From the NCBI GenBank assembly GCA_963662715.1, contig OY759724.1, positions 1,140,001-1,172,000 of the forward strand: a DNA stretch of 32,000 bases, given 5' to 3'. The notes below the pieces were generated by a model. It had not been told where the DNA came from, did not search any database, and saw nothing but the letters and a program-made list of their open reading frames with translations. This document shows, piece after piece, positions 1-32,000 of the stretch. The DNA is from Candidatus Omnitrophota bacterium (lineage in GTDB: Bacteria; Omnitrophota; Gorgyraeia; Zapsychrales; JANLHA01). Position 1 is the stretch's first letter. The number at the start of each line of letters is the position of its first letter. The translations under genes and the position numbers were made by a program.

Positions 1-3000
1 CCTCAGCTATAAAAATATCCGACGTCCGGCTGTGTTTTATAAGTCTTCTGAGCTCTCCCTGGACAAAATGTTTATTCGTGCGGGCATTCGCGGCGCGGAG
101 AACCCGAGATAAAATATACGCGAATTGTTCTTCATTGAGATGTTGCATAACGTCCCGGTCAGCCATCGCGGCTAAAAATCCCTGCAGCTGCCGCCAGTCC
201 GGTGTGGCCAAAACGCATTCGGAAAGGATTCGGACGTTTTCTGCGGGGTTATCAAAAGTGAACCAGCTGGCCATAGCATCGGCCACGCTAAGAGGATCAT
301 GTCTCTGGACCTTCTGCAGGACGGAAACAGCAGCCTGATTCTCCAGGATATGGTCGATGAAGGAAGCAACGCGATGATCGAGCCGGTAATTGATACGGGC
401 TAAATACGCTTTCAGGGAAGGAATGACAGAAGGAATGGTCGCAGGGCGATAAACAAAATGGTACGGCCTGCTGGAATCCAGATACGCGGTGATCCAGTCA
501 AAGACAGAAAACACTTCGGACAACATATTGTTATTGGAAGGCCGGTGATGGTTTAAGATAATATGCTTCTCGGAATCGCTCAAAGAAATGGCTTCGGCCT
601 GTATCCTATCCACGGACCCGCTGGTGTGCACAAGGGTGATATGGGCCCGCTGCTCATCGAACAATTCTCCCGGATAATTGACCATAGGAAGTATGGAGCT
701 CTGCCCTTTGCCGAGATCGTGCATCAGCCCCATTCTCCAGAGCATATAAATGTCCTCTTCCGGCAGATCAAATTGGCGGCCGAAAATAACACCCAATTCT
801 GATACGGCCTCTCCATGCCGCCAAACGTTTAACATGCCGGACCGGTACAAAGATCTTAATAAAGACTTTTCTTTCGACCACAGGGACACATCGATCGGGG
901 AGCTGTTAACCTGCTGTGTTTTAGCCCGGACCGGCTTCTTGTGACGGAAAAGAATAACGCCTCCTTCGATGTAATCATATATAGTTTTGACGTCCTGATG
1001 CGTTGCCCTTTCAACTTGTTGCCCGAGAAGCCGTAACTTTCCTGCATCAAATTCCTGTTCATGAGAGGAAACCGATCCCTCATGGTCTTCCTCAAACGGG
1101 ATGGAAACAACTAGCGTCCCGCTGACAACTTTTAACCAATCCAGGATATATTCCAACGGAGTTTTATTCATTAAATGTTCCAGGACATGATTGACAACCA
1201 TAAAATCAATAAGCTCCCCTCCCAGGGTTGTTCTCACGTGTTGGACAAAACCCGGATCATTGACATCAGCAACAACCCACTGCGCATCCAACTGAGGATA
1301 CGAAACAGCTTGCTCAACAGCAAATTTCATATCCGTCAGCTTATGATCTAACCCGACAAATTTGACTCTTCTAGAAAGCTCTCCGGGCAGGAGATTAAAA
1401 GCCGTAAAGATAAAATGGCCAAAGCCCGTGCCCAGGTCTGCCACGCGAAGCGTTCTATCCGGATTTGCCGTTAAATCTTTTTGTAAGGCCATGATGGCAA
1501 CAGCGTAAATCCAGCTAAAATGCTGGATGTGACTATAATCCGGCCCGTTCAATTGATATTGCCGATAACGATATTTCTTCCTTCCTGTTATCAACGCCTG
1601 TGTTTGCTCTTCAAAAGCTTTTTGTGAATTTCTGAAGAATTCCGCCAAAACATCATCCATCGCCGCTTCCCGGCCTAATTTAGTCCGGTTCAGCCAGGAA
1701 ACAAGCTTGAGGATTAAACCTGAGCGACTTATATCTTGTCTTCTTGCCCGTCGGCTTTGGGGCACTCGCAGAAACCCTTTTCCGAACAAATCCTGCGCTT
1801 CAATACGTTGCTGCCAGACACTGTCCCGGTCAATAAGCCTTGCTGCCTGATTTTGGCTATTCACAAAATAATGGACAGCACGCCGCACCTGCCCATGGGT
1901 TAATGTCACCACTTGTTCCGCCTTTAGCAGTTCCATTTCATGGCCGGTATAGCGTGTCTCTATATTTTGTTGTTTTAATATCTCATCGAATTTTTCCGGA
2001 GAGATAACCGAGAAGCTTACTTGCGGGAAGTTGAGGGTTAATAATTTTTCCAGGATTATATAAACATCGGCTCCTGTCCTGGCGACGACTTGAATAAGGA
2101 CCGATTCATTGTTTTCGGCAGACATTCTGAACAACTCTCTCGCCCGGACCACATCTTCATCCGTAGCCGCGTTCTCAATCAGCGCCAAGGCTTTGTCAAC
2201 ATAACGGCAATCCGTACGAGGGAACAGATGATCGTAAACTTTATAAAGCACGACCGCCCCGAAGCATGCCGTTATCAGGGCCCAGGATGTTAGACCAAAG
2301 ACTGCCAGGCCGAAAAGTCCGAAGGCTGCGAAACCGGCAAAACTGAAGATACCCTTCATCAAAACTCTTGAGCTGTTATAGTTTCTTTCAAGACCTAATA
2401 AACTTGTCTCTCCGTAAACCTGAGCTTTAAATGTCCCGGGGAACTGAATATCAGATTTATCATTCCCATCTACCGGGGAAGACGTTCGCAGGTAAAAACG
2501 GTCAATCAAAGTCGGATATTCAAAAATCTTGCGGCTTCGATCGAGCGTCTCAAAAGCCTCTTTCCGGTCAGCCGGCAACGGGGCAGGGAACCATTCCGGG
2601 CCCGGCAGGCCGGGGAGCAAATCAATGAGGAAAATATCCGCCGTAATCCCGTTGCGTGATGCGTCCTTAAAACTGCCGATATACATCATAGGCGTCTTCA
2701 GCTCTGCCGTAACAGCATGCAGGTGCTTTCTGGACGGAATATTCTTCTGATGCACTGTCGCCAAATAATACCGTCCGAACAGCCCGGCATACTCGAGGCT
2801 GATTTTCAGCAACTCTGATCCCACGCCCCGGCCCTGCATATCCGGGACAACAATAGATGTTCCGAGGACGAGGCCCGACGATCTTAAGATCTCAAATGTC
2901 ATCGGCAGAAAATCATTCGGCGACATTGTCTGAAGTATTCTTACAGCCTTCGTGCGGCCTTCATCGTCCTGAGCACTCCATACCTGCAGGATATTCTTGA

Positions 3001-6000
3001 TTGTTTCTGCTGTTGTTAATGTGCGGTAAACTTCAGCAAATAGATTCCCGGTAAAATAGTCCGTCTTGGGATATATTTTTCTCCAGGAAACAATGTCCTG
3101 AGCAAGAGCAGAGTAGCCCCCGGGGCCAACGGCTCTGACCGAATAGCGGCCGTTCCCGGACAAGCCTGCCGGGACCGGAGAGCTGGCCGCGGCTGCTGTT
3201 GATGACCTCTGTACAGCGCGGACATCTACGACCGGCCTGCTTTCCTGGCAGACAGAACCCCTGTTCTTCTGTGCATGCCTTATCCGGCAAACATCTCTTC
3301 TAAAGACGTCTTTGACCTGCGATAACACAACAATCAGTTTTGAGACTGCATCTGCAAGAGAAGACAATAACTCCTGCATTTCAGCAACGACGACAATAAA
3401 CATATTGGCTCGGATTGTTGCCACCGGCGGGCTGAGACCGGTTGAAACAAAATGTTGGCCGGCCGTTTTTCTGGCCAGGAAGGCTAAGGACCAGGGACTC
3501 TCCCCGGGATCGTTAACTGATATATCTTTATGGACGACCCAAGACGCAAGTGAAAAAATATCATGACTATTTTCTTCAGCCCGGACAGGAGAATTTGCCG
3601 TTTCCACAGGGACAACCGGCCGGTCTTGCGGCCGGGATCGATAAGGCGATCTTTCCGGAGTCCGGACCGGAGCTTTCATGATTTGCGGCCAGATCATTGG
3701 ATTCAGCCATGAAGGCGTCGGCAGAGGCATGATTCCTTGAACCGGAACATCAATGACCTCTGCTCCCGGAACTATTGTCTTCGATGGCAGATAAGACTCA
3801 TGATTCAACAACGGCGAAGAAGACGTCACAATCACAGCTCCGACCGTTTTTTGCGGATGCGTTACCTGCGTCCGGCCTGATAGGAATACGGCATATTCCT
3901 CCTTGGTCAAAGGAGAAGATGAGGTGACCGTAACAGCCCCAACGTGTTTTAAGGCATAAGAGGTCTCGCCTCCGGTTTTCCCGTTCTTCTGTTTTGCCAG
4001 GTATTCCGCATATTCCTCGGCACTCAAAGGCGAAGAAGATGTCACAGTCACCGCGCCTATCTGTCTCTCGCGACTCTTTTGCATATAAAGGCCACTATCT
4101 TGGCTTCCCAAATACGCGGCATATTCTTCGGCGCTCAACGGCGATGAACTGGCCACGGTAGATGCGCCCACCCGGCTTACGCTTCTTTCCTTAATAGCGC
4201 TCTCTACAGCAACAGCATCTTGATTTGCCAAGTACGCGGCGTATTCTTCGGCGCTCAACGGCGATGAACTGGCCACGGTAGATGCGCCGACCGGAATTTT
4301 CTTATAAACTGACTGAGCGGGCATCTCATCAATTAAACGTAACTGACTTGCCTGTCCTGCTTTTACGGAAGGTCGAAGAACTTTCGTATAAGCATGATTC
4401 AAAACGTTAAAAGCCCTTAACAGGAATCTCACGAGGAAATCTAACAAGAACATAAATATCAGCATAATTCTGTTCAGCAGGGATGAAACAGCGATAACAA
4501 TGACATCCTTCTGCTTTTCGTCTTCACTCACCGCCGGGAATTCCCAGGCAATCTCTGTCTTCCCTGTATCAACTTCCGGCTTTCCTGGAACACGGACAAC
4601 ACCTCTCGTCCAATTGAGCAGCGCTATGCTTATCCTTTCGGAAGAAATCATTTCTTTCCCGTAAAGGAACGGCAACATTATCGGCTTAGGCAACACAAGC
4701 TCCGCTAATGCGTTAAAATCTCCGGCTTTTGTTTCCAGCGGGCTGCTGCTCTTTCTTTTGTCTGAACGTGTTTTCCGTCCGCCGGATTTTAACTGCGACC
4801 GCGGTAACGGCCTAACGTTTTTCCCGGAGTTACCGGCAGGGACAGCCTTTTGTATTCCCGCGGCTTTCTGCTGAGAATAAACATCCTGTTTAACTTCTTC
4901 CTTAATCTGACGAACCGGATATTGGCCTTCAGCCTTCCCTGTTGTCTTGTCTTTCGTACTGCTCTGGGCCAAAGAAGGTTTAAAGGCCGGGGACACAATA
5001 TTTTTAAATATCTCAACAGCATAACTGCTCATAAACGTATAATCAGCCGCATCCTTACCGTTAACGTAGACAACAACTATTCCGGCATATTTATCCCCCA
5101 TGGAGAAGAGGAACGATGCCGTTCGATTATCGCGATTATCTCCTGTGCCGGTTTTCCCGCGGTTATGGACACCTGCTTTAAGATCAGAGTCACTTATGCG
5201 TGCTCCGCTGGCCGTCCCCCGCTGCACAACATCACCCAGGACATCCAGCAAGACTTCCGCCACAGCCGGGTTCAAAACCTGCTCTCCTTCCCCTCCTTTA
5301 GGATTCTCAAACCAGGTCTCCCACGGTGTCCCCCGGGCGAGAATGAGCTTTTCAACCTCCACCGTCTTCTTCCTCACACCTTTATTCAGGAGAATATTCA
5401 TAAATTCAACCAGGGCGCTGGGAGTGTCTCCCGAACAACCGAAAGGCAATGCCAGAGAAGGATACACCTCAAACGGATACCCCATTTGCTGCCAGAACGG
5501 AGTGAAATACCTGGCCATAATTTCTTTCTCGATCAACCAATATATTTCATTATTCATCTTCCAGGTAAACCGCGGCTTCAATAGCCATTGCGCGGATTGC
5601 TCAAGGATGGTTGCTGTTGTTGCGTCCTGCAACGCCGGCCCTTGTGCCACTTGCCCGGATAACCATGTTTTCCACACACGGGCGAGGTCGGTTAAGAATT
5701 TTCTGGTATCCTTATCCTGATACTCCTTAATCGTCGCTTGAATCCGTCCGTTATTCTTCTGGACACGGCGGATAAAGGATTCGAGCAAGGCGCGCGTCTT
5801 CTCTTCTTCCTTCCTGACAACTTGGCCCATAAACATGGCCCGGGTAGGATTGTCAGGATTATCCAAAATGTCTTCGAGTGTGGAACCCCACTCTTTAAAG
5901 ACATAATAACGGATCATATCCTGGGTTAAACGGGCAAAAGGCAGATTGATGGAATACTGCGTCGCCTGCCAAAGTGTCGGGCTAAGGGCATCGTGTCTTT

Positions 6001-9000
6001 TGGTCCAGTTATCAAAATCAAGAACCCCGCCGTCGGTCACAAACGGCTGCGGCTTGGCGGAGTAGGTTCTTTGCATGGCGGCGTAAAGCACTTCCTGCAA
6101 GGACGCTTTCGGACGATGCCGCAAGTATTCAATCATCCACAAAGTTATCGGATCATATTGTTTAAGCGATTCTTCCTGCAGAGCCTCTTTCGGCAGACCG
6201 TGATATTTTTCGTAAAGCTCTGCGATAATATCGTCAAGATACTGGGCTTCTAAACGCGGCTTTGCGGTCGACCCCAGTTCAAGCATGCTCTGGGAAGCAA
6301 AGCCGGAGAAATCAGTCTCCTGCTCGGCGTATGTATCCAGGTGAACAACAACTCTGTTCGGCTCACCAAGGCCGCCTTTCTCCGTCACAAAAACACTGTA
6401 ACGGACTTTTGACAGATCGTCACCCGGCTTCATCCACTGCTGCTTCGTATATCCGGACAGGATAACCTGCGGATCATAAAGGCTGTTTAATCCTTCCGCG
6501 ATTCTGTTCTGCAGACCTTCGTCTGTTGTAAGAGTTACTTCTAAATGCATATTGTCAACAGCTGCTCGGTGGATGTCTCCGTTGCCGGACGTCCTGCGTA
6601 AATTCTCGGTCAAGGCATTGCGCACCGTTATTTCCGGACGTTCCCGTCCATAATCAATACTGCGCGGATCAGGGCGCCGCTGATAATTCCACTCGATCTG
6701 TGCCGCCGCAGCCTTTTGATATAATTCTTCACTCAGATATCCCTTCTCCTTCACTTTCAAAAGAAGTCTTCTGGCTTCTTCGACAATATGATCCGGATGA
6801 CTCTGCAGTTGAGTGGGATACCGGACAGCCGTAATAAGGGTGGCTGAGCGCAGGAGGGCCTGAGGCAATGTTTCCGGATTATTAAACCGGGCAAAGAACT
6901 CTTCCTGAGATAAACCGAAATAGGCGTGCAGCGCGTTACGGAATCCGGTCAATTCTCCCCGGTAAATCTCCGGCCCTCCGGCAAACCTGAGCTGATTCAA
7001 ATAATTCAGGACCCCTTCCTGAACCATTCTCCTTTGTTCGCCGTTACTCAGATGCAGAGACGCAATGGATATCTGCCGCAATTTCTCAGCAACATTCGGC
7101 GTCTCCCCGTTCGGAGAATAATGCAGCTTGGCGACCTGCGTTAAAATGGTACTTGCCCCGGGCGTTCTTTCTCCGTTTCCTGTTATTCCTTTGGTGACGG
7201 AATTAATAACATACTTCCACCCAGCTTTTAACTGTGCGCCTTCCTGAATAACCCAATTCCCCATCGGCGGCGATTGCGGGTCCTCCGGGAACAAAATTCT
7301 TAATATTTCTTCGTTTTCTCTTACAGCCGCTATTTTGATAATAAATGCCGGAATGTCTTCGTAGTTTTCAATACGGTCTTCCACATATTCAAAAGCCGTT
7401 TCATGGTCAATGTCATAAATGACAAGCCCTCGTCCGGAGTCATAGAACCACGGAACAACGCCATAATCCCCTAACAGCATCCTGAAAGCTTTCGACTGGC
7501 GGGCCTGACGGGTCAGTTCAAAGTCCTCTTCCAAAGCCGGTATCCATCGAGGAATGATGATATAGCCACGGCGTTTCGGCAGGGCTCCGGTATTCGGGAA
7601 AATAATCTCATCCGCTGATGATTTTCCTTCTTCCACTGTCCAGGTAATTTGTGAATTCAAATAATGGAAAAGTTGAGAATAGACAACCCCGAACCGGGCC
7701 TCCATGCCGGCCAGCCCTAACATCAAGACTGTCAGAACACCCAGGCGGACTGAGAAAGGAGCTTTACGTGGCAGAATCTCCCACACGCTCATGATCAGCA
7801 GATACGGAAGGATGACCGCTGCAACGAAGACAATATTAAAGAGTGCCGGAGAGAAGAAGAAAAAGTGCGAAAGCATATACACAAAACTGCAGGCTCCGGC
7901 CGTGGATAAAGATACCAGAATTTTCTCGGGACTGAAAGCTGTCCGAAGGGCTGTCCGCCCGGGGACATCCAGGATGGAATCATGACGCAAAGCGTAGGAC
8001 AGATGCCACATGGCCTGGAAGAAGACTATGGTGCCGATAAGCCATGGCAAACTGACGGCGCTAAAGACCGCGGAGAATCCGAAGATGCTCCCGAGAACGA
8101 AAGCCGAGCCGCCCAAAATCATTCCTGCAGGCTGATATAACACAGGCAGGAACAGGCGACCGAAGAATTTGCCCCAAGCAGGATGTTTCCGATCCTTTAA
8201 CATCTCCTCAACCGAGGACGGGCTCAATAACCGTAATCCCGTCATGATGTGTATCCTAAGTTGGTTGAGGCGTGCCAATAAAGCCGCCTGATATTTCCTA
8301 ATGAAAGGAGGCGTCTCTTTCTTAAGCTTAGCCACAAATGCCGCAAATTGCATCTGCCACAGCAGCCGGGCTATGTCCCAATCGTTTATGCGGTGACGGT
8401 ATCTGCGGGCCGACATTCTCAGCTTAAGACTCCATGTCGACCACCGGGTCCCTAACTGTTTCTGCCACAATATCCGCTGTATGTTCCAACCGGACAGGAG
8501 TGTTTGCGTCCTTCGCATCACGGTCCGGATACTGCGACGCCATACCGGCCACCGGGTTTCTAACTGCTTTTGCCGCAACATCCATTCCGTCTTCCACATA
8601 AACTTGCGGTTGTGATATTCCCTAACCAGTGAACGGATCTTAACTCTCATGTCTGACCATTGAGTCTCCATTCGTTTCTGCCATAAGATCCAGTCCTCTT
8701 TGCTTCTGTATTGTTTGTATTTCAGGACAGCAAACGTAATGAAGGCGGACCACAGCGCCCGGATCCATAGGCCGAACTGTTTTTTGTCACGGCTCTTTTC
8801 GCTTTCCTGCGGCAACGGATTTTCGTCTTCTATCGGAGAACTGGCCCCAGCATCTTCATCATCAGAGGATTCCCCGATGATCTGCTTGCCCTTCTTCACC
8901 GCGGTTTTGTCTGTTTGTTGCGTTGTGGCGTCCAGAGACGGCGCCTTTTTAGAGTTCTCGGGTAATACCCATACATCAGCAAAGACCCGCCTGCTGTATT

Positions 9001-24000: not shown

Positions 24001-27000
24001 TGATCTCCTTCACGGCGTTGATAACATCGGCCGGAGACTCCGACGGCCCTTTCGTCTCACGGGTCACCGGTGAACTGCCGTTCTCTGCCCCATTCCCGTT
24101 TCGGGTTTCGCCGTTCATGCGACGTTTGATACCCGTGATGACTCTGTATATCTGCCCGTCTTGATTAACGACATTTAAAATTCTCTCCGAACCCGGGGTC
24201 ACGTAAGATTTAACCGTATCCATGAATATATTTTTATAAGGAAGCCAGAACGCCGAGCCGACCAGCGCCAAAGGCTTCTCATAGAGTAAACCTGTCTGCA
24301 GATACTGGACATGGTGGAAAACAGCGATCTCGGAAAGGACATCAAATGTTCCCAAACGGCCCGGCAAAATAAAATGCCCCAGGACATTTTCCGTGAGAAG
24401 CAATTTCAGGACATAAGGATCCCGGGTCCTGAGAATATTGTTTTGGGTAAACTGGCTGACAACGGCGCGGCCGTTGGTATTATTCAATCCTTCATAGAAG
24501 ACCCCTTGCAGCTGCGTTGCCTTATATCGTTCGCGCCATTCAGGAATTTTAATTGTGTTCACTTCATCAATGACGGCTTTGGCAATAGGGCCGGTTCCGA
24601 CCACCCTGATGGGGATATCCATGCTGACAGCATGCCGGGTTATCGTTCTGACCATCTCAAGATCATGTCTCTGTTCAGGCTTGGCCTCGTCAAGACGGCT
24701 GCTGCCGATAATGACAATGGCCTGCGGCCATTGGTTAAGCACCGGCAATAAACGGCTGATCTCCGCTTTTGTCTGATGCAAGGCTTCAACCGTGTACGGC
24801 AATTCGCCATTGGCATGCCTGCCGGATTCAATAGATTCTTTCATCTGCCGGACGAGCGAGCGGGCGGCTTTCAGCAGATAAGCGTCAAGAATCTTTCCTG
24901 CCCTCATGTTATCCCGGTCTTTTTCAACAGCCCTCATGACAGCCCTCTGCTGTTGACCGGAAAGCATGACCTCCGGATAAAATCTGATCTCCGCCATACG
25001 GTTTTCCCGCCAGCCGTATGATTGCCAACGGCTTTTCATCGTGTCAATGACAGGCTTCCAGAATTCATTGGCGTAGACCAGCACCCCTGATCTCAAGCTT
25101 TCGTCAAACTCATCTTTTGTGCCGAAGCCCCCGACTCCGACATTAACAGCCAGGGCTTTCCGCAATAACGCCATCTTCCGCGGAACAAAATGCGTGTAAT
25201 AACGGTGGATTTCCACGTCTTTATTTAAAGGCTGTCCTTTAATATACAGCTTAAAGCCCTGGGTTTTCTGCCGGAAAATCTTCTGGCTCATCTCAGGCTG
25301 GATCCATTGAATATTATCGATGGCGAATCTTAAGAAGAATATCTCCTTTTGGCTTAAAGGCCCGCGGGCGGACAAGTATCCGCTGAGAATCGCCTGCATG
25401 AGGCCGGGTCCTCCGCCCGTGCAGGGCGTTAGTCCCGCCTCCAGCAAGGCCTGGCCGAAGAAGACTCCAAAACGATACTCGAGCGTTCCGGGGGCCACAA
25501 CGTTTCCGCCGTAAGAGGTAACCGATGCCGGCAACTTTTCTTTGAGCAGGATGACGTCATTAATTTCGCGCACTAAACGATCCCTCAATATAAGCAGGTA
25601 TTTCTGTTCATTGAGCTGGTTGACCGGAGAACTCGACAGATGGTGAGAAGAATATCTGAAATTCTGACGCACGGAACCTCTCCCCTGTAACGGCTGCCCT
25701 AATCTTGCAAAAACTCTTTCCGGGACACTGTCTCCGTATTGGGCAGAGTAATCCGAAATAATCCGGCTAACCTTCTGCCCCAAAGTTTCGTCTGCAGAGA
25801 CACTCTCGAAAAGATCAAAGAGAGGAAGTTCAAACATTCTCAATAAGTCGGAGATATTCACCCATAACGCGTCGACAAGGGACTCTTCCCGGCAAAGCGG
25901 AAGTCTGTCCAGCAGGACGCCGCGGGCCACATACAATCTCCAGCTGATGTAGCGCTTGAATTCGTTTCTTTCGTTCGTCAATGTGCAAATAACTTCCATC
26001 AATTCTCTTAGGGTGTGAGGGCCTTTTCTGTTGTAATAAATATCAAACGCCCGGTCTTTCTGGGATAACGCTTGGGCAATGACATGAACATTCTCCTCAA
26101 AGCTTCTGTCTGCGCCCGGGACCATTTCAGGGACCGCTTTGCCGGACAATAAATCAAACAGGAATTTCTGAACCCCTGAACCATAAACCGCATCATCATT
26201 AAGCATTTCTTCAAATACTCCAGAGACTGTTGTTTCACGGCTTCCGACAAAAATCCTTCTTCCCTGCTTCCATATTCTGTCCCGCTCCACATCATCAAAC
26301 ACAAATACCGGCGTGAGCAGGTTAATGTTACGATCGTTTTCCCGGTTAATCGCCATGACCGGGAAGCCCCGCTGATCGACATACACGAGCATCCGTTCAC
26401 TTGTATGCGGCCCTAAGTAAGCGACAATACTGGTTTTTTCAGCCCATGGAAGTTTTAACTCGCCCTGCCTGGAAGGTTTCGCATGGTTTTCATTGCGGTA
26501 AATCCCCTTACCGTCAACAATCAGGAATCTGCGTCCGGATACCAGTTTCGACAGATAACTGATATATTTCACCCGGCTCTCGATAAGCTCATACCGGTCA
26601 CCGTAAACCCGGATCAGGGCATTCTCGTCATGAGAAACCTCTGTTTCAACTGATTTATAAATCAGCCGGGCATTCCGGACAAGAAATTCAGGGGCGACCG
26701 CTTCTCCTGCTTTGAATGCACCTCTCGGTAATTTATAATCTTCATAGAAGGTGAAGAACGGCTGTTCCTCCTTGCCCAACCGGACCGGAAGATAGCGGAT
26801 ACGGATAGCCGTGGCCCGGACACCGGAATCGTTGAGCCGTTTCATAAAAAGCTTCTGGTTCAAGTTCAGGGCCTGATAATTTTCCCTTCCCACAACCATA
26901 AGCAATTGCCACTCACTGTGACGGCTGTTCATATATTCAATACGGATAAAACCGTCATAGGCCTGCTGTTCCAGATTTTCCGCGGCAAGCGCCGAAGGGA

Positions 27001-30000
27001 TATCCTGCACACGGACCGGCCAGCTGTTAATCATCCACTGCATCAACGATGCGTTCTGATAAGGCGTATATATTCTCCGTCTTCTGTCTTTGCTGCGGAA
27101 GCCTCCCCGGTCATCTGTTTCTATGCCTAAAACAAAGCCGTTGACGTTCTGTTTGTAAATCAGGTGAGAACCTCCCAGCCTCGTCTCAACCAGACGTCCC
27201 TCCTGGTCAAAAATCTCGTAAAGGACATTGAGGACAGCCGCTGTTTTATTAAACGGATATTCAGAGTAGCCGCGCAGGAAAAGCTCCGAGTCTGATTTTC
27301 TGCTGAAGAACAATCTCACCGGCGTCTGCCCGGCCGGGACATAACCGTAGCGCTTACTGAACATTCTGATCTCGCCGGTGATATCCGGCATCAGTTCGAC
27401 AATGCCGATCTCCTGACTCCAGAGCGCGGCCTTGAACCCTCTCATCATGGCTCTTTCCTCAAGACTCATGGCCCTCTTGCGGATGAACCGCGAAATAACC
27501 TCCCCGCTGTTATTCAATAAAAGACCGTAGCCCGCCTGGAGCAACCGGATTCTTTCTTCAACATTTCCTTCCGCCAAATGAAGGGCACGTGAATAAGGTC
27601 CTTGTTGGTCTGTTTGTGTTGAAAGGCCTTCATACCGGACAGACATGTTGCGGAAAGTTTCTTTCAGAACACGGCCGTAATTCTTTTCCCATGCAGCAAA
27701 TTCAAAATGACCATTCCTGTGACTTTCGGCCGTTCCCTCATCCGGCAGGATGTGCTGGACCGGAGAACTGGGCGCCAGGATTATTTCCCGTCTCTTTGGA
27801 AGAAGCAAGTCCGGATTTTCTCTGAAATAAGACTCCAACTCAGCCTGTCTGGCTTCTACGGAAGGATGAGTGTCTTGATGCTGCTCAGCCAAATTCAAAT
27901 GAGCGTATAATCTGCTCATCTTCTCAAGAGCCTGCAAAGCTTCCTCAACGCTAAACCCTGCCTGTTTCACGGCGGCCAAAGCAAACCTGTCCGCCTTGAA
28001 CTCCTGATGATGTCTGAATCGGACCCATTCTTCTTTCGCATGGGATGTGGCTTCCGGGTCTCCATGAAGGAAGCGGAAAACGATTCTGTTTCTGATATCT
28101 CGATAAAAGACATGCCCCAGTTCATGGCCATAAATCCAGGCCAGTTCGGTATCAGTCATCTGATCGCTCAACCCTGTCCTCATCACGACACGCTTCGCAC
28201 AGAGGGAACAGAGTTCTTTATGATCCTGGGATTCCGGATGATAGATGAGCAGCGGATAATAAGCGGCTATCGCATTCAACAAGATATGGTTTTGGATAAC
28301 GGCCATAATTCTGCCCCATATACGGTGAATCCGTTCATACTCCTGGACAAATTGAGGATGTTGAGCCGTATAGAGTTCCCGGGCGTCAGACAAGAGGGCT
28401 AATGTCACAGTGGCATCGGAAAGCTGTTCTAATTGAGGTAAACGTGTATAAAAATCAAAACGGTTCATCGTCGGGAAAGCCTCCATAATGGACATGAGCT
28501 GATGCGAAGCGAGTTTAAAGTGCATGGTGATGATTTTCTTTCTTAAGATAAACAGACCGTCCTCATGAGGAAGGGACGCGATATGATCCTGCAGGATTTT
28601 CTGCTGAAGGGCCTCGTGATATTCCACCGGGCTGGAGGCCGGCACCAGCTGGTCTTCCTGCATGCTCAGCCGGATCACCCTTTCCTTTTGAGGCAGGCTC
28701 ATCCAGTCCTGAATGGCGACGGTGTGACGAACATCCCGGAAGTCCCAAGAGACATCCACAACCGCAAAACCTTCTGCTGTCTCTGCCAGCATGGCGCCTT
28801 TCCCTCGCTCAACAAGAACGAAACGCACATTGCTCAGGGTCTGGCCGCCGATCTCTATGAGCGATTGAACTATCCGTTCCAGATCCTGTTTAACTCCTGA
28901 ACGGTAGGCAAAGACAAGCGTCAGTGTCTCTGAAGAACGTTTCTTCAATTGCTTTATCATTTCGGAAAGAGCGATTTTTCTGGTTATAAGATAATGATCG
29001 TAATTAATAAGATTTTTACAGGACAGAAGGTCATAACGCGGGAAGTATGGGTTTTCAAAATATAAATGATGCTGCGCCAGGCCGAAACGCTGTCCGTAGG
29101 ATTCATACATTCCTGTTATTCCGACACACTCCAGCAAGTCGCCGGTCCCGACAACAACACCTTTCTCCAATGCGACAGGCTCTTCCGTCGGCCGGTGATA
29201 GATCAGCCGGTCGCCTTTCTTAATTGGCCTGGAATGGATGCCATAACTATGGGCGAACAATTCCCCGCTGATCTTCAATTGCCGACGTATCTGCGCCAAT
29301 CTGTGCTGTTTCCCGGAAGCGCGGACGATCGGGGAGGATTGCGCTTGAACAGAAAGGTCCATCCGGGACGCTGGAAGTTCTTCACTCGACAGTTCGACCA
29401 TCAGGTCCCAGAAGTCCGGCATGATCCCTTCATAATCCGGATGGTCTGTCTGCAGCGTCTCATACGCCTCTTCCCCGATCTCCCGGAAATCCTTCATATC
29501 CTCCGCATCCAAACGGTTCACGTCAAACCATCTCTGACCTATGTACCCCCGGCTCTTCACGTCATAGCCCAGGATCCCCGCCAAGGTGATCTTCGCCTCT
29601 CGCGCCTTCTTCTCCCCGCGCGGGTCCGCGTTCCACATCCGGCTCAATAACTCTCCGCTCTCCAGCACGCTCTTCGCGTCCTTCGGCGTCAGCAATGTCA
29701 GATACAACCCTTCATTCCCTTCAAAATATTCATGCAGTTTCCTCGCATACTCCCCTTCCTTCGTCTGCGCCTTCCTCTCCGCTTCCGTGTACGAATAGTG
29801 CAGGTGCACATACCCCAGCTCCTGATTCGCCTGCTGGTTCGCAAACATCTGGTTCGCCACATACAGCGGCGACGGATACGCATGCCGCGGCGTCCCAAAC
29901 AGCTCGATGTTGATCGGCGCCCGCAGATACTTCACATCCGCCAGCTTCGGCTCCGGCTTGTAATACACGCTTCGTCTGAACATCGTCTCGATCGGCGTAG

Positions 30001-32000
30001 TTCTTACCAGCTCCCACAACTCCTCATCCGTGATCCCGCCCTCCGGCACATTCAACGCCTTGCGCCAGTACAACGCATTTGTTGGCTCATCATACAGGTA
30101 ATCCACAACACTCCGACCTTCCGGCAGCACCAGCTGATGCGTCGGAATCCAGATATACCGACTCGCACTGCTCCGCTCATCAAACGTGAACCGCACCGAT
30201 GACTGCAGCTGCAGCCCCAGCTCTTCCCTGCGGTCTTCTCCGAAACCTCTTTCTTTCAACCCGGCATCCGTATAGGTCTTCAGGCCCGGGAACGCGAACG
30301 TCCAGCCCTTGTACCACCAATCCAGCGGCTTGACGTCCATCCCCAGGATATGCGGCATGATAAAATGCGTGAACTGATCGCCCGGCTGCCTGGCGATGAT
30401 ATACGCCCCGAACTGGATCGGTTTGGCAAATCCTTTCACCTTGCGGCTGAACACCTCTTCGATCTCATTGAGCCGGTGCGGCCCGTTCCACGGCCGCGGC
30501 GTTACCCCGCCCTCTTCGATCGGCGAAGAAGTTTCTTCCAACGGCCTTAAGTCTCTGATCAAATCAAATTCGGCTAAATACCGCAACTCCTGGTCAGTCA
30601 AACGCTGTTGAGAAGAAGCGTTACGGACTTTACGAATCAAATCCTGCAGCTCAGGATTTTGCTCCCCGGTGAAAACATAAGGCACAAACCCGAAATGTTT
30701 AATGTAGAACACAGCCGCCCCGGCTTGCAGGGCATCGTCAGCAAACTCTTTATGAGCTGTTTCTCCTCCGAATTGTGAATTTGAAATAACAACGCCCTCA
30801 ACATCAGGATATAAAATCCGCACCGCATTCAATCTCTGTTCGAATATCTTCCTGGAGAAATAATGCCTGAACCTCGGGATGATCTTATATCCGATTGTGA
30901 TCTTATCATCCAGCAATGAATGGAACGCTCCATGACCGATCATGAGCTGCTTCTCCAGCAAGAAACCTTCCGCGCAGTTCGTCAGATCATCAGTGAACCA
31001 CATGATCTGCTGAATGCCAAAATCATGAGTCGCCACACAGCACGTTCGGGTCCCTTTGGCGCTGAATCCTCCGATCCAGAATTTCTGGAGTTTGAAATAA
31101 TCTATGAACTGTTTCAGGTAGGCCTGTCTTTGCTGTTCGGAAGCAACCAAGCGAACGTTCGGGAGAGATAAGAATGCTTCTAAATCGGCTTTGACGACCT
31201 CCGGGCTCTTGTCGTCATTGACCGGGGAGCTGCTGACACTATCGTCACGGCGGGTCGCGTCTGCTGACTGATCTTTAATGATCCGGACAGTCTGGTCAAA
31301 AACAAGCTCATAGACCGGGTCAAAGCTGTGGTCCAGGTACCGGTTATAAACTGTGAGGACTTTTTCCCTCCGGGCAATTGTCACATACGCCTGAGCCGGC
31401 AAATAGCTTCTGACCAACAGCACTTTAACTGTCCATTGTTTAAGTTCTACCTGATGCTCCACCTGCGCCAGCCGCCAGTGTTTCAAATACTTCTCTGGGA
31501 AGACATCATAATATTTCTCATATCCTTCATTGAGGAAAGGCAAACACAATTGCGTCTCCCATCTTTCCAAATGCTTGCTGACCAAGCCCGTTTGCGCATC
31601 TCTGTGTCTGTACCAGCGGGCAAGCATCCTCGTCCATGTCAACAGGGTTTCCCAGAGCCGTGTGCCGATACGATTCCGGAAGACAATGATTTCATTTTGT
31701 CCGGCTTCTGGCGCGGAAGACCGGGCATGCATTTGGACTTTTACAGCCTGCTGCCGACCTATCGGGGAAGAAGTTTTATTCTGCTCTTTTCGGTCTTCAT
31801 CCGAACTCTTTAAAACTTGTTTCTGTGCCGCGTGATCATGCGTCGTCAAAAGCTTCTGTGAGTTGGGCCATAAGGCCATAAGACCCAGGATGCCGCCGAT
31901 GACGTAGGAAACAACATCCCATTTATCCGGAGTTGAAGTGATGCCCCACCACTCCAGGACGACAGAAAGAGCAACCATCCAGAAAAGCGTTGTCTTGGCA
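1..32000 (-). CDS. Single giant multidomain ORF, open at both window edges (10,666 complete codons, 31999 down to 2). It is an internal fragment of a membrane-associated multi-enzyme protein of more than 10.6k aa.
   Basis: I read every plus-strand triplet in the phase starting at coordinates = 2 mod 3 (2-4, 5-7 ... 31997-31999). None is tta, cta or tca, so there is no TAA, TAG or TGA on the minus strand. All catalytic motifs and all 31 SSPx motifs listed here fall in this one phase. None of the 22 minus-strand ORFs in the supplied track is in this phase (their upper coordinates are 0 or 2 mod 3, never 1). This fits a track that reports only ATG-to-stop ORFs closed inside the window. Confidence 0.96.
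450..830 (-). other. Second HD-superfamily phosphohydrolase domain (HD-GYP-related layout)
   Basis: The sequence contains WRHGEAV (His 815-817), LMHDLGKG (HD = 716-721), LVHTSGS, ILNHHRP and FSVFDWITAYLDSSRPY. An SSPI junction at 893-904 separates it from the methyltransferase. Confidence 0.6.
940..1560 (-). other. Class I SAM-dependent methyltransferase domain (2)
   Basis: The sequence contains LRVADLGTGFGHF (motif I, VADLGTGFG = 1418-1444), KFVGLD, DFMVVNHVLEHL and LKVVSGTLVVSIP. Confidence 0.82.
2246..2350 (-). other. Predicted transmembrane hairpin (2 helices)
   Basis: GIFSFAGFAAFGLFGLAVFGLTSWALITACFGAVVLY. Confidence 0.6.
2620..3140 (-). other. GNAT-family N-acetyltransferase domain
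   Basis: GTSIVVPDMQGRGVGSELLKISLEYA (QGRGVGSELL = 2807-2836) matches the acetyl-CoA-binding motif A (Q/R-x-x-G-x-G/A). The module fills one inter-motif interval (234 aa). Confidence 0.75.
3600..3800 (-). other. Proline-rich linker
   Basis: PLPTPSWLNPMIWPQIMKAPVRTPERSPYRSRPQDRPVVPVE. Confidence 0.6.
3806..4300 (-). repeat. Five in-frame tandem repeats of 33-40 aa, each containing the SSSPL junction motif
   Basis: The unit consensus is vGA(s/v)TV(a/t)SSSPLSAEEYA-x-YL. The SSPL positions are 4256-4267, 4136-4147, 4025-4036, 3908-3919 and 3809-3820, giving periods of 120, 111, 117 and 99 nt. The two upstream units share a 57-nt stretch (4232-4288 vs 4112-4168) with 2 mismatches. Confidence 0.9.
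4415..4504 (-). other. Predicted transmembrane segment (1-2 helices)
   Basis: VIVIAVSSLLNRIMLIFMFLLDFLVRFLL. Confidence 0.5.
5000..6560 (-). other. Penicillin-binding transpeptidase domain
   Basis: The three motifs occur in canonical order: LELGSTAKP (SxxK = 6260-6271), DFDNW...ATQYSINLPFARL (SxN = 5945-5953), and NRGKTGTGDNRDN (KTGT = 5144-5155). The spacers are longer than in typical PBP1 proteins, with about 106 and 266 aa between motifs. Confidence 0.78.
6740..7350 (-). other. GT51 (peptidoglycan glycosyltransferase)-like domain, divergent
   Basis: TPGASTILTQVAKL (7133-7165 region) resembles GxSTITQQ, and EGVLNYLNQLRFAGGPEIY resembles KxxILxxYLN. The EDxxFxxHxG motif is not recognisable (AAVRENEEILRILFPED). 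The RKxxE glutamate motif is also not recognisable (AEKLRQISIA). Confidence 0.5.
7700..8180 (-). other. Cluster of about 5-6 predicted transmembrane helices
   Basis: The hydrophobic stretches are FLPVLYQPAGMILGGSAFVLGSIFGFSAVFSAV, LPWLIGTIVFFQAMWHLSYAL, ILVSLSTAGACSFVYMLSHFFFF, ALFNIVFVAAVILPYLLIMSVW and VRLGVLTVLMLGLAGM. The cluster lies immediately upstream of the PBP-like unit. Confidence 0.7.
8330..8700 (-). repeat. Four Trp/Arg-rich repeats of about 33-36 aa
   Basis: The four units are WILWQKRMETQWSDMRVKIRSLVREYHNRKFM, WKTEWMLRQKQLETRWPVWRRSIRTVMRRTQTLLSG, WNIQRILWQKQLGTRWSTWSLKLRMSARRYRHRIND and WDIARLLWQMQFAAF. The recurring core is (I/L)LWQKQL-x-TRW. Confidence 0.65.
8723..8776 (-). 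other. Predicted transmembrane helix
   Basis: FGLWIRALWSAFITFAVL is flanked by basic residues (KKQ ... KYKQYR). Confidence 0.6.
9260..9670 (-). other. HD-superfamily metal-dependent phosphohydrolase domain (HD-GYP-related layout, GYP absent)
   Basis: The sequence contains VIQHILAVAD (His 9656-9658), AAYLHDIAKV (HD = 9557-9562), RRHPKQG, IRYHHD and FFADYIDGYNDMTRPY. Confidence 0.65.
10890..11330 (-). other. Fic/DOC (Fido) domain with a non-canonical active-site motif
   Basis: The sequence is AIRLAALAFYRLVHIHPLYNGSERMSRLLANYIFVKY. The motif position HPLYNGSERMSR = 10943-10978, compared with the canonical HxFx[DE]GNGRxxR. His and both Arg residues are retained, while GNG is replaced by GSE. 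Confidence 0.65.
13262..14248 (-). other. Aldose 1-epimerase / galactose-mutarotase-like domain
   Basis: The ordered blocks are LLFPFANRF, VRHGFVRKLPF, VGYSMHYYFN, FPSGRL, DRFDFTRGRRLG, YDHVF and DFICIEPQT. They match the order of conserved blocks in the Aldose_epim family (PxxNR, HGF, HxYFN, iPxG, fDF..g..lg, D..F, f.ciEPqt). The module fills exactly one inter-motif interval (333 aa). Confidence 0.6.
15430..15775 (-). other. Coiled-coil region (about 115 aa)
   Basis: ARLEEISQLERDLKSAQ ... LLQRLDNNLIQQAKLRALQMEQ ... ETERDALRLEAMDLRVRLNDLVVKL is rich in L/E/Q/R/K with heptad-like spacing. No predictor was run. Confidence 0.5.
16810..17040 (-). other. HEAT / PBS-lyase-type repeats
   Basis: LADLLFYDSNEFVRSTAARGLAYG and EALRKGAEENNSYIANACRNGLA form two consecutive HEAT-like units. 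Confidence 0.4.
19328..19860 (-). repeat. Copy X of the conserved C-terminal subdomain of about 180 aa (paralogous to 25634-26170)
   Basis: See the entry for 25634-26170. The offset between the near-identical cores is 6309 nt (in frame), and both copies end in an SSPV junction (19316-19327 and 25622-25633). Confidence 0.85.
21137..21208 (-). other. Helix-turn-helix-like segment inside the 712-aa module X
   Basis: PFSIVEVHKQLGVSRRAVINYVKNI shows a pattern of hydrophobic helix, G-x-S/T turn, and basic recognition helix. This is a weak call made by eye only. Confidence 0.3.
21500..21950 (-). other. Class I SAM-dependent methyltransferase domain (1)
   Basis: The sequence contains RILEIGPQTGQLLL (motif I, ILEIGPQTG = 21842-21868) and KVEGLD (acidic end of strand 2), followed by YDITISQLVFDLF and LTKVGGFSLHE. 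Confidence 0.72.
22290..22620 (-). other. JAB/MPN (JAMM) metalloenzyme domain
   Basis: The sequence reads KREFGFVASGDG ... VLFAHSHDQDEYLPSLGDL. This is an exact JAMM motif H-x-H-x7-S-x2-D at 22373-22414, with the usual upstream Glu. Confidence 0.72.
23440..24040 (-). other. HEAT/ARM-like helical repeat region
   Basis: About 200 aa of short amphipathic helix pairs, for example PAIMDILVRRGGRRALHTYIHIL, LRPYLVQAMGEMKEDAL and IRAVRLLPKLLTGTSEKLVKEVKDVL. Assigned by eye only. Confidence 0.3.
24215..24730 (-). other. LOG-like domain 2 (degenerate glycine motif)
   Basis: The blocks IVIIGSSRLDEAKPEQ (24661-24720), VVGTGPIAKAVIDE, HFILPGRLGTFDVLSE (approx 24320-24375) and KPLALVGSAFWLPY occur in the same order as in domain 1. 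The first motif is degenerate. Confidence 0.45.
25040..25550 (-). other. LOG / TIGR00730-like (Lysine_decarbox family, SLOG superfamily) domain 1
   Basis: TPCTGGGPGLMQA (GGGPGLM = 25397-25417) matches the GGGxGxM motif. VGVGGFGTKDEFDES (approx 25100-25140) followed by VLVYANEFWKPVIDTM matches the PGGxGTxxE motif of the LOG family. Confidence 0.6.
25634..26170 (-). repeat. Copy Y of a conserved C-terminal subdomain of about 180 aa (paralogous to 19328-19860)
   Basis: Copy Y reads KFLFDLLSGKAVPEM...DRAFDIYYNRKGPHTL...ERNEFKRYISWRLYVARGVL...LWVNISDLLRMFELPLFDLFESVSADETLGQKVSRIISDY. The other copy reads RLFMEFLTNKGVAERL...DKAFDVYYTRKGPQTL...ERNEFKDYVGWRLYVARSVL...LWVNISDLLRMFELPLFDLFENISEDESLGQKVGRIISDY. 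A 58-nt core (25810-25867 vs 19501-19558) differs at only 3 positions. Confidence 0.85.
27830..28330 (-). other. M48-family zinc metallopeptidase domain (HtpX/BepA-like)
   Basis: The sequence contains GHELGHVFYRD (HELGH = 28112-28126), a downstream HHQEFKADRFAL block, and THPSVEARQ (His at 27866-27868). This matches the HExxH ... ExxAD ... HPxxxxR pattern typical of Peptidase_M48. Confidence 0.78.
29339..30517 (-). other. GC-rich module of unknown function (393 aa) bounded by two SSPI junction motifs
   Basis: The module lies between SSPI 30518-30529 and SSPI 29327-29338. I recognised no family by eye. Hand-counted GC of 60-nt lines is 55-65% inside (for example 29821, 29881, 30481). Lines just outside (29221, 30541) give 45%, and lines sampled elsewhere (9301, 16501) give 38-43%. 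The plus strand is strongly C-rich in this interval. Confidence 0.7.
31420..31670 (-). other. Trp/Arg-rich helical segment following the TM helices
   Basis: The sequence reads RLWETLLTWTRMLARWYRHRD ... LERWETQL ... LKHWRLAQVEHQVELKQW. Its composition and W spacing resemble the clearer repeats at 8330-8700. Confidence 0.4.
31868..31990 (-). other. Two predicted transmembrane helices (most N-terminal part visible in the window)
   Basis: The translation gives TTLFWMVALSVVLEWWGI (approx 31940-31990) and WDVVSYVIGGILGLMALW (31868-31921), two hydrophobic stretches of about 18 aa. No predictor was run. Confidence 0.6.

Follow-up and report, generated by a model that had tools for sequence, protein, structure and literature searches.

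The window analysed here, a 32,000-nucleotide stretch of contig OY759724.1 (positions 1,140,001 to 1,172,000), raises the question of whether the frame that stays open through all of it on the minus strand is one giant gene and, if so, how such a chain is divided into working parts. Six-frame translation showed no stop in the 10,666 codons that run from 31999 to 2, and 294-613 stops in each of the remaining five frames, where the longest open stretch is 258 amino acids (aa). Gene start and gene end both lie outside the window, as a first-pass annotation made from the letters alone had stated. Its uniform-codon probability for such a frame, 10^-222, is of the same order as our estimates (log10 P of no stop from -228 to -274 for 10,666 codons), which take the stop frequency from the two other minus-strand frames (4.8-5.7%) or from a mononucleotide null (5.1%). 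The window is very probably an internal piece of a single giant gene of the Omnitrophota type with a whole-enzyme modular architecture, and its modules appear to meet at a recurrent Ser-Ser-Pro (SSP) peptide. On this reading the locus belongs to an already known class of Omnitrophota giants, and what is new is the SSP junction rule.

2..31999, minus strand: stop-free open reading frame (ORF), internal fragment of a giant gene, 10,666 codons, open at both window ends.

The frame is real coding sequence, as the stop statistics, the GC content per codon position (55/39/54%) and the uniform codon usage all indicate. Codon usage correlates from slice to slice with r of 0.76-0.92 and tetranucleotide usage with r of 0.70-0.83, and the GC content is 46-52% throughout. 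Because composition is this homogeneous, there is no hint of a chimera. Plus-strand GC skew is negative in each 2-kb bin (-0.04 to -0.14), with a coding strand that is G-rich all along, which is consistent with a leading-strand gene position, as reported in complete Omnitrophota genomes. Separate expression of the modules found no support in three weak tests, none of which showed an excess in the window: 22 promoter-like sites were found where 21.9 were expected, 21 terminator-like sites where 21.4 were expected, and a Shine-Dalgarno sequence with a start codon at 4 of the 32 SSP junctions where 3.5 were expected. No RNA genes or ribozymes were found within the ORF.

The window protein contains 32 copies of SSP, where residue shuffles give 2.35 +/- 1.43 (maximum 7 in 500). 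SSP is the most over-represented tripeptide of the protein, with a z-score of 19.6 by composition and 8.3 against a first-order Markov model, and SSPV its most frequent tetrapeptide. SSP is followed by V, I or L at 30 of the 32 sites and by M or A at the others, the residue before it is mostly S, A or T, and the sites are mainly 200-730 residues apart. The serine codons at these sites are a mix of all six, which means that the peptide, rather than the DNA, is constrained. A DNA-level cause (recombination or an RNA signal) is ruled out by the same mix. The sites are given below as the residue number of the first serine, followed by the window coordinates of SSP and the next residue.

893..31771, minus strand: junction peptide [SAT]-S-S-P-[VIL], 32 copies.
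Minus strand: residue 77, 31760-31771; 257, 31220-31231; 491, 30518-30529; 888, 29327-29338.
Minus strand: residue 1122, 28625-28636; 1411, 27758-27769; 2123, 25622-25633; 2642, 24065-24076.
Minus strand: residue 3095, 22706-22717; 3312, 22055-22066; 3513, 21452-21463; 4225, 19316-19327.
Minus strand: residue 4734, 17789-17800; 4738, 17777-17788; 5067, 16790-16801; 5092, 16715-16726.
Minus strand: residue 5532, 15395-15406; 5903, 14282-14293; 5914, 14249-14260; 6247, 13250-13261.
Minus strand: residue 6495, 12506-12517; 7221, 10328-10339; 7720, 8831-8842; 9085, 4736-4747.
Minus strand: residue 9245, 4256-4267; 9285, 4136-4147; 9322, 4025-4036; 9361, 3908-3919.
Minus strand: residue 9394, 3809-3820; 9606, 3173-3184; 9840, 2471-2482; 10366, 893-904.

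These sites fall between protein segments and not within them. We compared SSP positions with 16 segments that were defined independently of SSP, as homology or Pfam spans. None of the 16 has an SSP more than 15 residues inside it, compared with a random mean of 5.95 and a minimum of 1 in 20,000 trials, and 9 of the 32 segment ends lie at most 15 residues from an SSP, where 2.85 were expected (P = 0.0015). Homology to an epimerase covers residues 5919-6259, with SSP sites at 5914 and 6247; homology to a LOG module covers residues 2122-2647, with sites at 2123 and 2642; and the block that follows it, homologous to an Omnitrophota protein (P0005), covers residues 2648-3100, with sites at 2642 and 3095. 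The projected C-termini of 14 free-standing LOG-type proteins fall approximately 11 aa before the SSP at 2642, and both copies of the one internal duplicate have an SSP at their end. The ten residues ahead of SSP are linker-like, 68% of them being polar compared with 55% overall.

The same punctuation is present in relatives of the window protein. HQP11152.1 (P0003), an Omnitrophota fragment, has 16 SSP where 0.8 are expected; MBP7216039.1, another Omnitrophota fragment, has 16 where 1.0 are expected; and a stretch of the giant gene of Candidatus Velamenicoccus archaeovorus LiM has 24 where 1.3 are expected, with A or S as the next residue. None of seven Pfam domains has an SSP inside in P0003 (P = 0.007), and none of seven in the LiM stretch (P = 0.006). 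Two-domain enzymes of these relatives lie within one SSP-to-SSP interval, as shown by the N- and C-terminal domains of phosphoribosyl pyrophosphate synthetase and by GDE_C with alpha-amylase. SSP is at chance level (0-2 copies) in the long Chlamydiota and Elusimicrobiota homologues, in unnamed long proteins and in a free-standing relative, P0002. Among the handful of fragments surveyed, SSP punctuation was found solely in proteins labelled Omnitrophota and in one labelled 'bacterium'. The lineage-specific next residue (V, I or L compared with A or S) is consistent with a recognition partner that co-evolves with the motif. The junction rule is a property of the class and not of this locus, and it is undescribed within the literature searched: no SSP motif is mentioned in the accessible portions of West-Roberts 2023, Nielsen & Lui 2026 or Seymour 2023, the Nielsen & Lui 2026 text uses none of the terms SSP, linker, motif or cleavage, a search for Omnitrophota with polyprotein returned no paper, and one for Omnitrophota giants with SSP, linkers or cleavage sites returned nothing relevant.

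A contig that is 99% identical to HQP11152.1 (L004; JGI 3300026159, Ga0265424_1064242) carries a TAG at approximately position 19240 in place of the serine codon before an SSP (GASTVM*SSPVSLEEY compared with GASTVMSSSPVSLEEY), and the frame is unchanged after it. The TAG may have arisen through a sequencing error; the alternative is a natural truncation that falls exactly on a module junction. The other gene breaks of this contig (259-314 and 4150-4310) coincide with a run of N and an ambiguous base.

The polypeptide is a string of approximately 25 modules of 200-730 aa each, and the recognisable modules each match one whole free-standing enzyme. We scanned the entire chain and overlapping 700-aa pieces of it with Pfam, and also searched NCBIfam and PDB sequences. 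Six Pfam families scored above their curated cut-offs, with at most two copies of any family; PDB sequences added further matches only for LOG, FICD and HD. Recognisable families make up approximately 10% of the chain, leaving approximately 90% without a Pfam or NCBIfam assignment. The modules and domains found, with weak and unverified matches marked as such, are as follows.

27836..28195, minus strand: M48-type zinc metallopeptidase, residues 1269-1388 (Peptidase_M48, 44 bits, cut-off 20.3).
25634..27769, minus strand: first 712-aa module, residues 1411-2122, no family match.
24077..25633, minus strand: LOG / tandem Rossmann module, residues 2123-2641 (Lysine_decarbox, 32.1 bits, cut-off 27).
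22718..24076, minus strand: module of residues 2642-3094, no Pfam match, homologous to part of Omnitrophota P0005.
22373..22414, minus strand: JAMM-like pattern HSHDQDEYLPSLGD, residues 3196-3209, regular expression alone, unverified.
21584..21919, minus strand: S-adenosylmethionine (SAM)-methyltransferase-like, weak, residues 3361-3472 (Methyltransf_23 19.7 and Methyltransf_25 16.1 bits, cut-off 27).
19328..21463, minus strand: second 712-aa module, residues 3513-4224, ending in 185 aa paralogous to residues 1943-2127.
16820..17017, minus strand: HEAT-like repeat, weak, residues ~4995-5060 (HEAT_2, 18.6 bits, below 27.7).
13223..14245, minus strand: aldose-1-epimerase-like module, residues 5919-6259 (Aldose_epim, 58.3 bits, cut-off 27).
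10925..11275, minus strand: Fic domain, residues 6909-7025 (Fic, 30.9 bits, cut-off 24).
9362..9667, minus strand: HD / HDIG phosphohydrolase, residues 7445-7546 (HD 49.3 bits, cut-off 22; HDIG 29.7 bits, cut-off 27.6).
2729..2863, minus strand: GNAT-like motif A, weak, residues 9713-9757 (Acetyltransf_1, 17.7 bits, below 20.7).
1142..1438, minus strand: second SAM-methyltransferase-like, weak, residues 10188-10286 (Methyltransf_12, 21.3 bits, below 30; VADLGTGFG).
530..823, minus strand: second HD (HDLGK), marginal, residues 10393-10490 (22.5 bits, cut-off 22), matching Omnitrophota P0024.

The M48 domain has HELGH at residue 1292 as well as EFKAD, lies inside the SSP module 1122-1410, and partially matches the NCBIfam families for LoiP and BepA. 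In the LOG module, which aligns over its full length with free-standing proteins of 400-600 aa, the Lysine_decarbox profile covers residues 2250-2303, with GGFGTKDE at 2290 and a match to PDB 5zi9. The next module resembles residues 600-1015 of P0005 (30% identity, E = 1e-58, over residues 2648-3100), and the match has an SSP site at either end. The Aldose_epim profile covers residues 6020-6241. The Fic region matches FICD and 3cuc in the PDB; its active-site sequence, HPLYNGSERMSR, departs from HPFx[D/E]GNGRxxR in four ways (Phe to Leu, D/E to Asn, Asn to Ser, Gly to Glu), and canonical AMPylation activity of this module is doubtful.

The first-pass annotation had described a chain of unrelated enzymes with more than 15 intact family-specific motifs, interrupted by transmembrane (TM) segments. 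The chain of unrelated enzyme domains and TM segments is borne out by the Pfam families and hydropathy peaks, and the M48 (HELGH) and LOG motifs score above their curated profile cut-offs. The count of intact motifs stands less well, as several are below threshold. For Fic, the profile score holds and the motif is degenerate; of the two HD domains, the first is secure and the second marginal. The GNAT motif A (QGRGVG at residue 9722) and the two SAM motifs are present, with profile scores below cut-off. JAMM could not be upheld as a domain: there is a HxHx7Sx2D pattern at 3196 with no support from Pfam or PDB sequence searches, and we keep it as a bare pattern. An AlphaFold2 model of residues 3100-3700, built from one or two input sequences, reached a mean predicted local distance difference test (pLDDT) score of 34.5.

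The SxxK/SxN/KTG triad that had been noted (STAK at 8577, SIN at 8683, KTG at 8949) is part of a larger unit, which resembles a class A penicillin-binding protein (PBP) and lies within the longest SSP-free interval of the chain, 7720-9085.

4955..7768, minus strand: class-A-PBP-like unit, residues 8078-9015, with TM anchor, GT51 and transpeptidase-like domain.

The GT51 domain, which the first-pass annotation did not name, scores 38 bits with Pfam Transgly (cut-off 27) over residues 8261-8412. The unit aligns end to end with a free-standing protein of 1,031 aa, P0002 (27% identity, E = 3e-75), which has an N-terminal TM anchor and a GT51 domain of its own and keeps all of STAK, SIN and KTG. 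A two-sequence profile matches the transpeptidase of Escherichia coli PBP1B (E = 2.7e-4), and NCBIfam TIGR02074 (PBP_1a) matches with E = 2.9e-12, at 46 bits compared with a curated full-length cut-off of 509. Of the GT51 motifs, the unit has motif 2 (GASTILTQVAKL); motif 3 is altered, with its Glu apparently replaced, and motif 1 (EDxxFxxHxG) was not found in the unit by regular expression or by eye. We read the unit as a complete but very divergent class-A-PBP-like protein. It shares with the class A PBPs (PBP1a, PBP1b and PBP1c) an N-terminal TM anchor, GT51 and a SxxK/SxN/KTG transpeptidase-like domain, and is unlike them in being embedded in a giant chain, in its GT51 without motif 1 and in an additional ~300 residues that separate its glycosyltransferase half from its transpeptidase half. 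The unit and P0002, its one detected relative, are members of an atypical GT51 lineage. P0002 is encoded on a Logan contig (L003) beside aldolase, Usp, HhH-GPD, UDG and deaminase genes.

The chain had been called largely non-repetitive, and this is correct. Tandem Repeats Finder detected no tandem DNA repeat in the window, and comparison of the protein with itself using BLAST revealed a single duplicate, of 185 aa and 52% identity. It forms the end of two SSP-to-SSP modules of identical length, 712 aa (residues 1411-2122 and 3513-4224), which resemble each other solely in these last 185 aa, where a 21-mer, LWVNISDLLRMFELPLFDLFE, is the same in both. Duplication of the entire 712-aa modules was rejected since their first 530 aa show no detectable relation. 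In the DNA, the corresponding repeat (D1) shows 72% identity over 300 nt. AlphaFold2 models the duplicated element as all-helical (pLDDT 45.7, one or two input sequences). A second kind of repeat (D2 in the DNA) consists of short units, each with one SSP, that directly follow the TM helix of residues 9166-9193.

3770..4297, minus strand: five tandem units of 37-40 aa, residues ~9235-9410, VGA[SV]TV[AT]SSSPL[ST]AEEYAAYL, one SSP each.

In these mini-units the sequence flanking SSP is conserved over a longer stretch, and HQP11152.1 has two such units. They could be a docking or recognition array for whatever reads SSP.

The placement of the modules relative to the membrane was judged from TM segments called by a Kyte-Doolittle scan and hand reading of the sequence. 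The TM segments proposed in the first-pass annotation were recovered as approximately 8-10 hydrophobic helices in 4-5 clusters, the strong ones confined to residues 7960-9918; the scan found no hydrophobic segment in residues 44-7100.

31871..31999, minus strand: two moderately hydrophobic helices, residues 1-43 (AKTTLFWMVALSVVLEWWG... and VVSYVIGGILGLMALW), below the hydropathy threshold, tentative.
7697..8122, minus strand: cluster of approximately five TM helices, residues 7960-8101 (hydropathy peaks 1.96, 2.52 and 1.7).
4421..4504, minus strand: TM helix, residues 9166-9193 (hydropathy 2.29), followed by a basic stretch.
2246..2353, minus strand: hydrophobic hairpin, residues 9883-9918, probably a pair of TM helices (hydropathy 2.01).

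The loops between the helices of the 7960-8101 cluster are rich in Arg and Lys. Its last helix is the anchor of the PBP-like unit and aligns with the TM segment at the N-terminus of the free-standing P0002, an alignment that puts the GT51/transpeptidase unit on the outer side. The region around helix 9166-9193 is homologous to residues 4203-4365 of P0003. In the arrangement that we somewhat favour, obtained with the positive-inside rule, the first ~7,900 residues and everything after 9193 would be cytoplasmic, and the PBP-like unit (8107-9165) alone periplasmic: the five TM helices would export this unit only, and helix 9166-9193 would return the chain to the cytoplasm, ahead of the hairpin. 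This topology fits the cofactor needs of the recognisable families, which use ATP or nucleotides, SAM or acetyl-CoA, and all 32 SSP sites would fall on the predicted cytoplasmic side. It agrees more with the TM-only giants with cytoplasmic domains of Nielsen & Lui than with the mostly extracellular prediction of West-Roberts.

To place the gene, we searched for homologues of four regions of the protein and found relatives of three. A 40-mer from the beginning of the window had no exact match in viral, genome or metagenome collections. The epimerase module had a single match among 5.8 billion proteins, a 1,086-aa fragment from an Omnitrophota metagenome-assembled genome with both ends open; its Omnitrophota relatives include P0001/L002, and a metagenome search with the epimerase alignment returned no match. 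It is 49% identical over 344 aa to an internal part of the giant gene of LiM (L001), where a scan of GTDB genomes with a two-sequence alignment located it at NZ_CP019384.1:115853-136863 of the Ca. Velamenicoccus archaeovorus chromosome. This 21-kb stretch, to which the comparison with LiM was limited, is stop-free over 7,003 codons, and is therefore taken to belong to the giant ORF of 39,678 aa known from this strain (Seymour 2023). It also contains a LOG-like match (24% identity over 464 aa). An exhaustive HMMER search with residues 2051-3250 returned 156 relatives, many of them fragments of 3,000-7,000 aa. The best was HQP11152.1, labelled Candidatus Omnitrophota (4,597 aa, both ends open), with 62-64% identity in the LOG module; this module is 62% identical to Omnitrophota P0003/P0154/P0155. 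Among named matches, P0003, P0005, P0007 and P0024 are labelled Omnitrophota or Omnitrophica, and other labels among the top eight are Bathyarchaeia, Elusimicrobiota and Chlamydiota. Residues 1-1200 (28400-31999) had no homologue among 5.8 billion proteins in a word-seeded search.

Similarity to these relatives is strictly modular, and the modules are reshuffled from one to another. In HQP11152.1 the TM-plus-mini-repeat module comes immediately after the LOG module, and in the window these are approximately 6,500 aa apart; the remaining 3,650 residues of HQP11152.1 have no match in the window. The order of the epimerase and LOG modules is inverted, the LOG-like module being downstream of the epimerase in LiM and upstream here. 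Homology and the shared SSP motif together point to Omnitrophota, with strong circumstantial support. The suggestion in the first-pass annotation that the locus may belong to the Omnitrophota giant-ORF class is in this respect supported; its description of that class as poorly understood does not hold in the sense of rare, given that thousands of Omnitrophota proteins of at least 10,000 aa have been catalogued (Nielsen & Lui 2026, bioRxiv 10.64898/2026.06.07.730766).

Three other accounts of what the gene is have to be set against this one. An assembly artefact, in which a chimeric contig or collapsed indels had fused separate genes, draws some support from the fragility of the related contig L004, with its N run, its frame change at an ambiguous base and its in-frame TAG. 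We consider it very unlikely: errors create stops and do not remove them (P ~10^-230 for a stop-free 32 kb), composition and codon usage are uniform, the homologous LiM stretch is stop-free over 21 kb in a complete genome, and the available texts of West-Roberts 2023 and Nielsen & Lui 2026 report the same architecture verified by long reads and closed genomes. Another phylum with very long genes (Elusimicrobiota, Chlamydiota, Verrucomicrobiota or Planctomycetota) is an improbable source, if less so than an artefact. The LOG module does match long proteins labelled Elusimicrobiota and Chlamydiota, the window carries no phylogenetic marker, and West-Roberts 2023 places proteins of at least 10,000 aa across the PVC (Planctomycetota-Verrucomicrobiota-Chlamydiota) group; against this, the two strongest matches (62-64% and 49%) are both Omnitrophota, and SSP is at chance level in the Chlamydiota, Elusimicrobiota and other unnamed long matches. 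The majority of bacterial megaproteins are nonribosomal peptide synthetase/polyketide synthase (NRPS/PKS) assembly lines or repetitive RTX/adhesin proteins. Such an identity is refuted here within the sensitivity of Pfam and NCBIfam, and its chance is close to nil: condensation, adenylation, ketosynthase, acyltransferase and carrier-protein families were not detected, nor were RTX, Ig-like or cadherin repeats, and the chain has no tandem DNA repeats and one internal duplicate.

A single Omnitrophota-type gene leaves the question of what becomes of its product. Translated as one chain, it would ensure that many enzymes are co-expressed and co-localised near the membrane, in what would be a small-genome, host-dependent bacterium, with short polar linkers between the modules, each linker ending in [S/A/T]-S-S-P-[V/I/L]. 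These junctions would act as recognition sites for a dedicated factor, acting in trans or in cis; that something reads SSP is suggested by its invariance at every junction and by its lineage-specific next residue. Site-specific proteolysis at SSP, releasing the modules as from a polyprotein, is in our judgement the single most likely reading, tentative as it is, and such genes carry candidate proteases within them (M48 here, C39/S8 in published relatives). SSP would then also mark where whole-protein modules are gained, lost and shuffled. The more specific proposal that SSP is a processing signal cut in the cytoplasm by a dedicated, co-evolving protease, to yield dozens of enzymes in fixed stoichiometry, is speculative and rather unlikely. 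The chain may instead stay intact as a membrane-tethered multi-enzyme scaffold, with SSP as a linker, a phosphorylation, glycosylation or docking site, or a proline-kinked hinge. We regard this as a serious possibility, if short of probable: Nielsen & Lui describe TM-only giants as membrane-anchored with cytoplasmic domains, the ten residues before SSP are polar, five SSP mini-units in tandem after a TM helix resemble a binding or modification array more than a set of cleavage sites, and peptides of the LiM giant ORF have been detected and a surface 'coat' proposed (Seymour 2023). For a purely flexible linker, however, neither a tripeptide that is invariant at 32 of 32 sites nor a lineage-specific next residue would be expected, and both the embedded proteases and the completeness of the modules, which are free-standing proteins down to a private TM anchor, speak against a chain that is never divided. 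Extracellular adhesion and breakdown of the walls of prey cells, as proposed for the Archaeovorins, is unlikely as the role of this fragment. West-Roberts 2023 predicts mostly extracellular domains for such proteins and proposes prey adhesion and wall digestion, with which the peptidoglycan-directed GT51/transpeptidase-like unit and the aldose-epimerase-like module of the window would accord. Most of the recognisable families, however, use ATP, nucleotides, SAM or acetyl-CoA (Fic, HD, LOG, methyltransferases and GNAT), residues 44-7100 have no hydrophobic segment, a positive-inside reading places the PBP-like unit alone outside, and Pfam scans detected no adhesin, dockerin, lectin or glycoside-hydrolase families.

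Several points tell against a polyprotein from an Omnitrophota giant gene as we have outlined it. Its topology was read from a crude hydropathy scan and by hand, not with a trained predictor, and it runs counter to the mostly extracellular prediction for such proteins (West-Roberts et al. 2023, bioRxiv 10.1101/2023.11.21.568195). With no flanking gene, rRNA or marker in the window, the taxonomic placement depends on the protein similarity of two modules and on the motif. Cleavage at SSP is conjecture, and the motif's role could instead be in phosphorylation, glycosylation, chaperone docking or folding. Approximately 90% of the protein is without a family and its first 1,200 residues are without a detectable homologue; some modules may be non-enzymatic, as the degenerate Fic motif and GT51 motif 1 suggest. 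The literature comparison excludes Kizina et al. 2022, which may discuss junction motifs.

On its own, the giant ORF would be of modest importance, as one more sequence-unique member of a class catalogued in thousands. The main question about the giants is whether each is a single multi-megadalton chain or many cut products, and the lack of known cleavage points has blocked even their computational dissection, according to the available text of West-Roberts et al. 2023. SSP offers a rule for splitting them into meaningful units for structure prediction and annotation. It is common to the V. archaeovorus LiM protein, the one Omnitrophota giant with cited expression data, gives an exact list of sites to look for in existing proteomes, and points to a protease or modifier that reads it. 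The inferred topology also challenges the picture of an extracellular adhesin or wall-degrading protein, at least for this fragment.

Among known systems, the fragment of at least 10,666 aa passes the threshold for 'large' proteins (at least 10,000 aa, with 'giant' set at 30,000 aa or more) in the accessible part of West-Roberts 2023. It resembles the LiM giant and the Archaeovorins, as far as the available text describes them, in being a stop-free mosaic of unrelated enzymes over tens of kb, with TM helices and mostly unannotated; epimerase (49%) and LOG-like (24%) homology and SSP punctuation are shared with LiM, and methyltransferase, peptidase, GNAT and HEAT-like content is common to both, the Archaeovorin epimerase having been found by structure prediction. 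It differs in module order, in that most modules are unshared, and in the residue after SSP, which is V, I or L here and A or S in LiM. Of the Archaeovorin repertoire, given in that text as glycosyltransferase, methyltransferase, glycoside hydrolase, peptidase, NUDIX, GNAT and HEAT, this fragment has a peptidase (M48) and weak matches to methyltransferases, GNAT and HEAT, besides an epimerase, and no NUDIX, GT1/GT5 or glycoside hydrolase; dockerin and TSP3 repeats, which that type lacks, are absent here too. The hallmark C39/S8 proteases are N-terminal, and the N-terminus of this gene is outside the window. SecA_DEAD and other SecA families had no Pfam or NCBIfam match in the fragment, and such a domain could sit outside the window. 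Conversely, GT51/PBP-like, Fic and M48 are not listed there for the Archaeovorins, which have SLT lytic transglycosylases.

The fragment is close to a Gorgyraeia type that Nielsen & Lui 2026 call the Class 1 'multi-enzyme metabolic cluster', whose long proteins have many Pfam families with none dominant, 'module 1' content (methyltransferase, GNAT and HD), membrane anchoring and long TM-free stretches. It has six confident and four weak Pfam families and no bulk tandem repeat, as in that class. Approximately 80% of these proteins are singletons at 30% identity, so the sequence uniqueness of this likewise near-orphan fragment is to be expected. Its Pfam density is lower, with approximately six confident families in 10.7 kaa, and it has a TM-free run of approximately 7,000 aa compared with one helix per 370-480 aa in the catalogue. 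Viral and eukaryotic polyproteins, such as those of picornaviruses and flaviviruses, are unlike it in showing no homology, in that the host here is cellular, the scale 10-100 times larger, TM segments interspersed and cleavage conjectural; what it would share with them, as a functional analogy, is one ORF for many unrelated proteins, a conserved junction peptide and embedded proteases.

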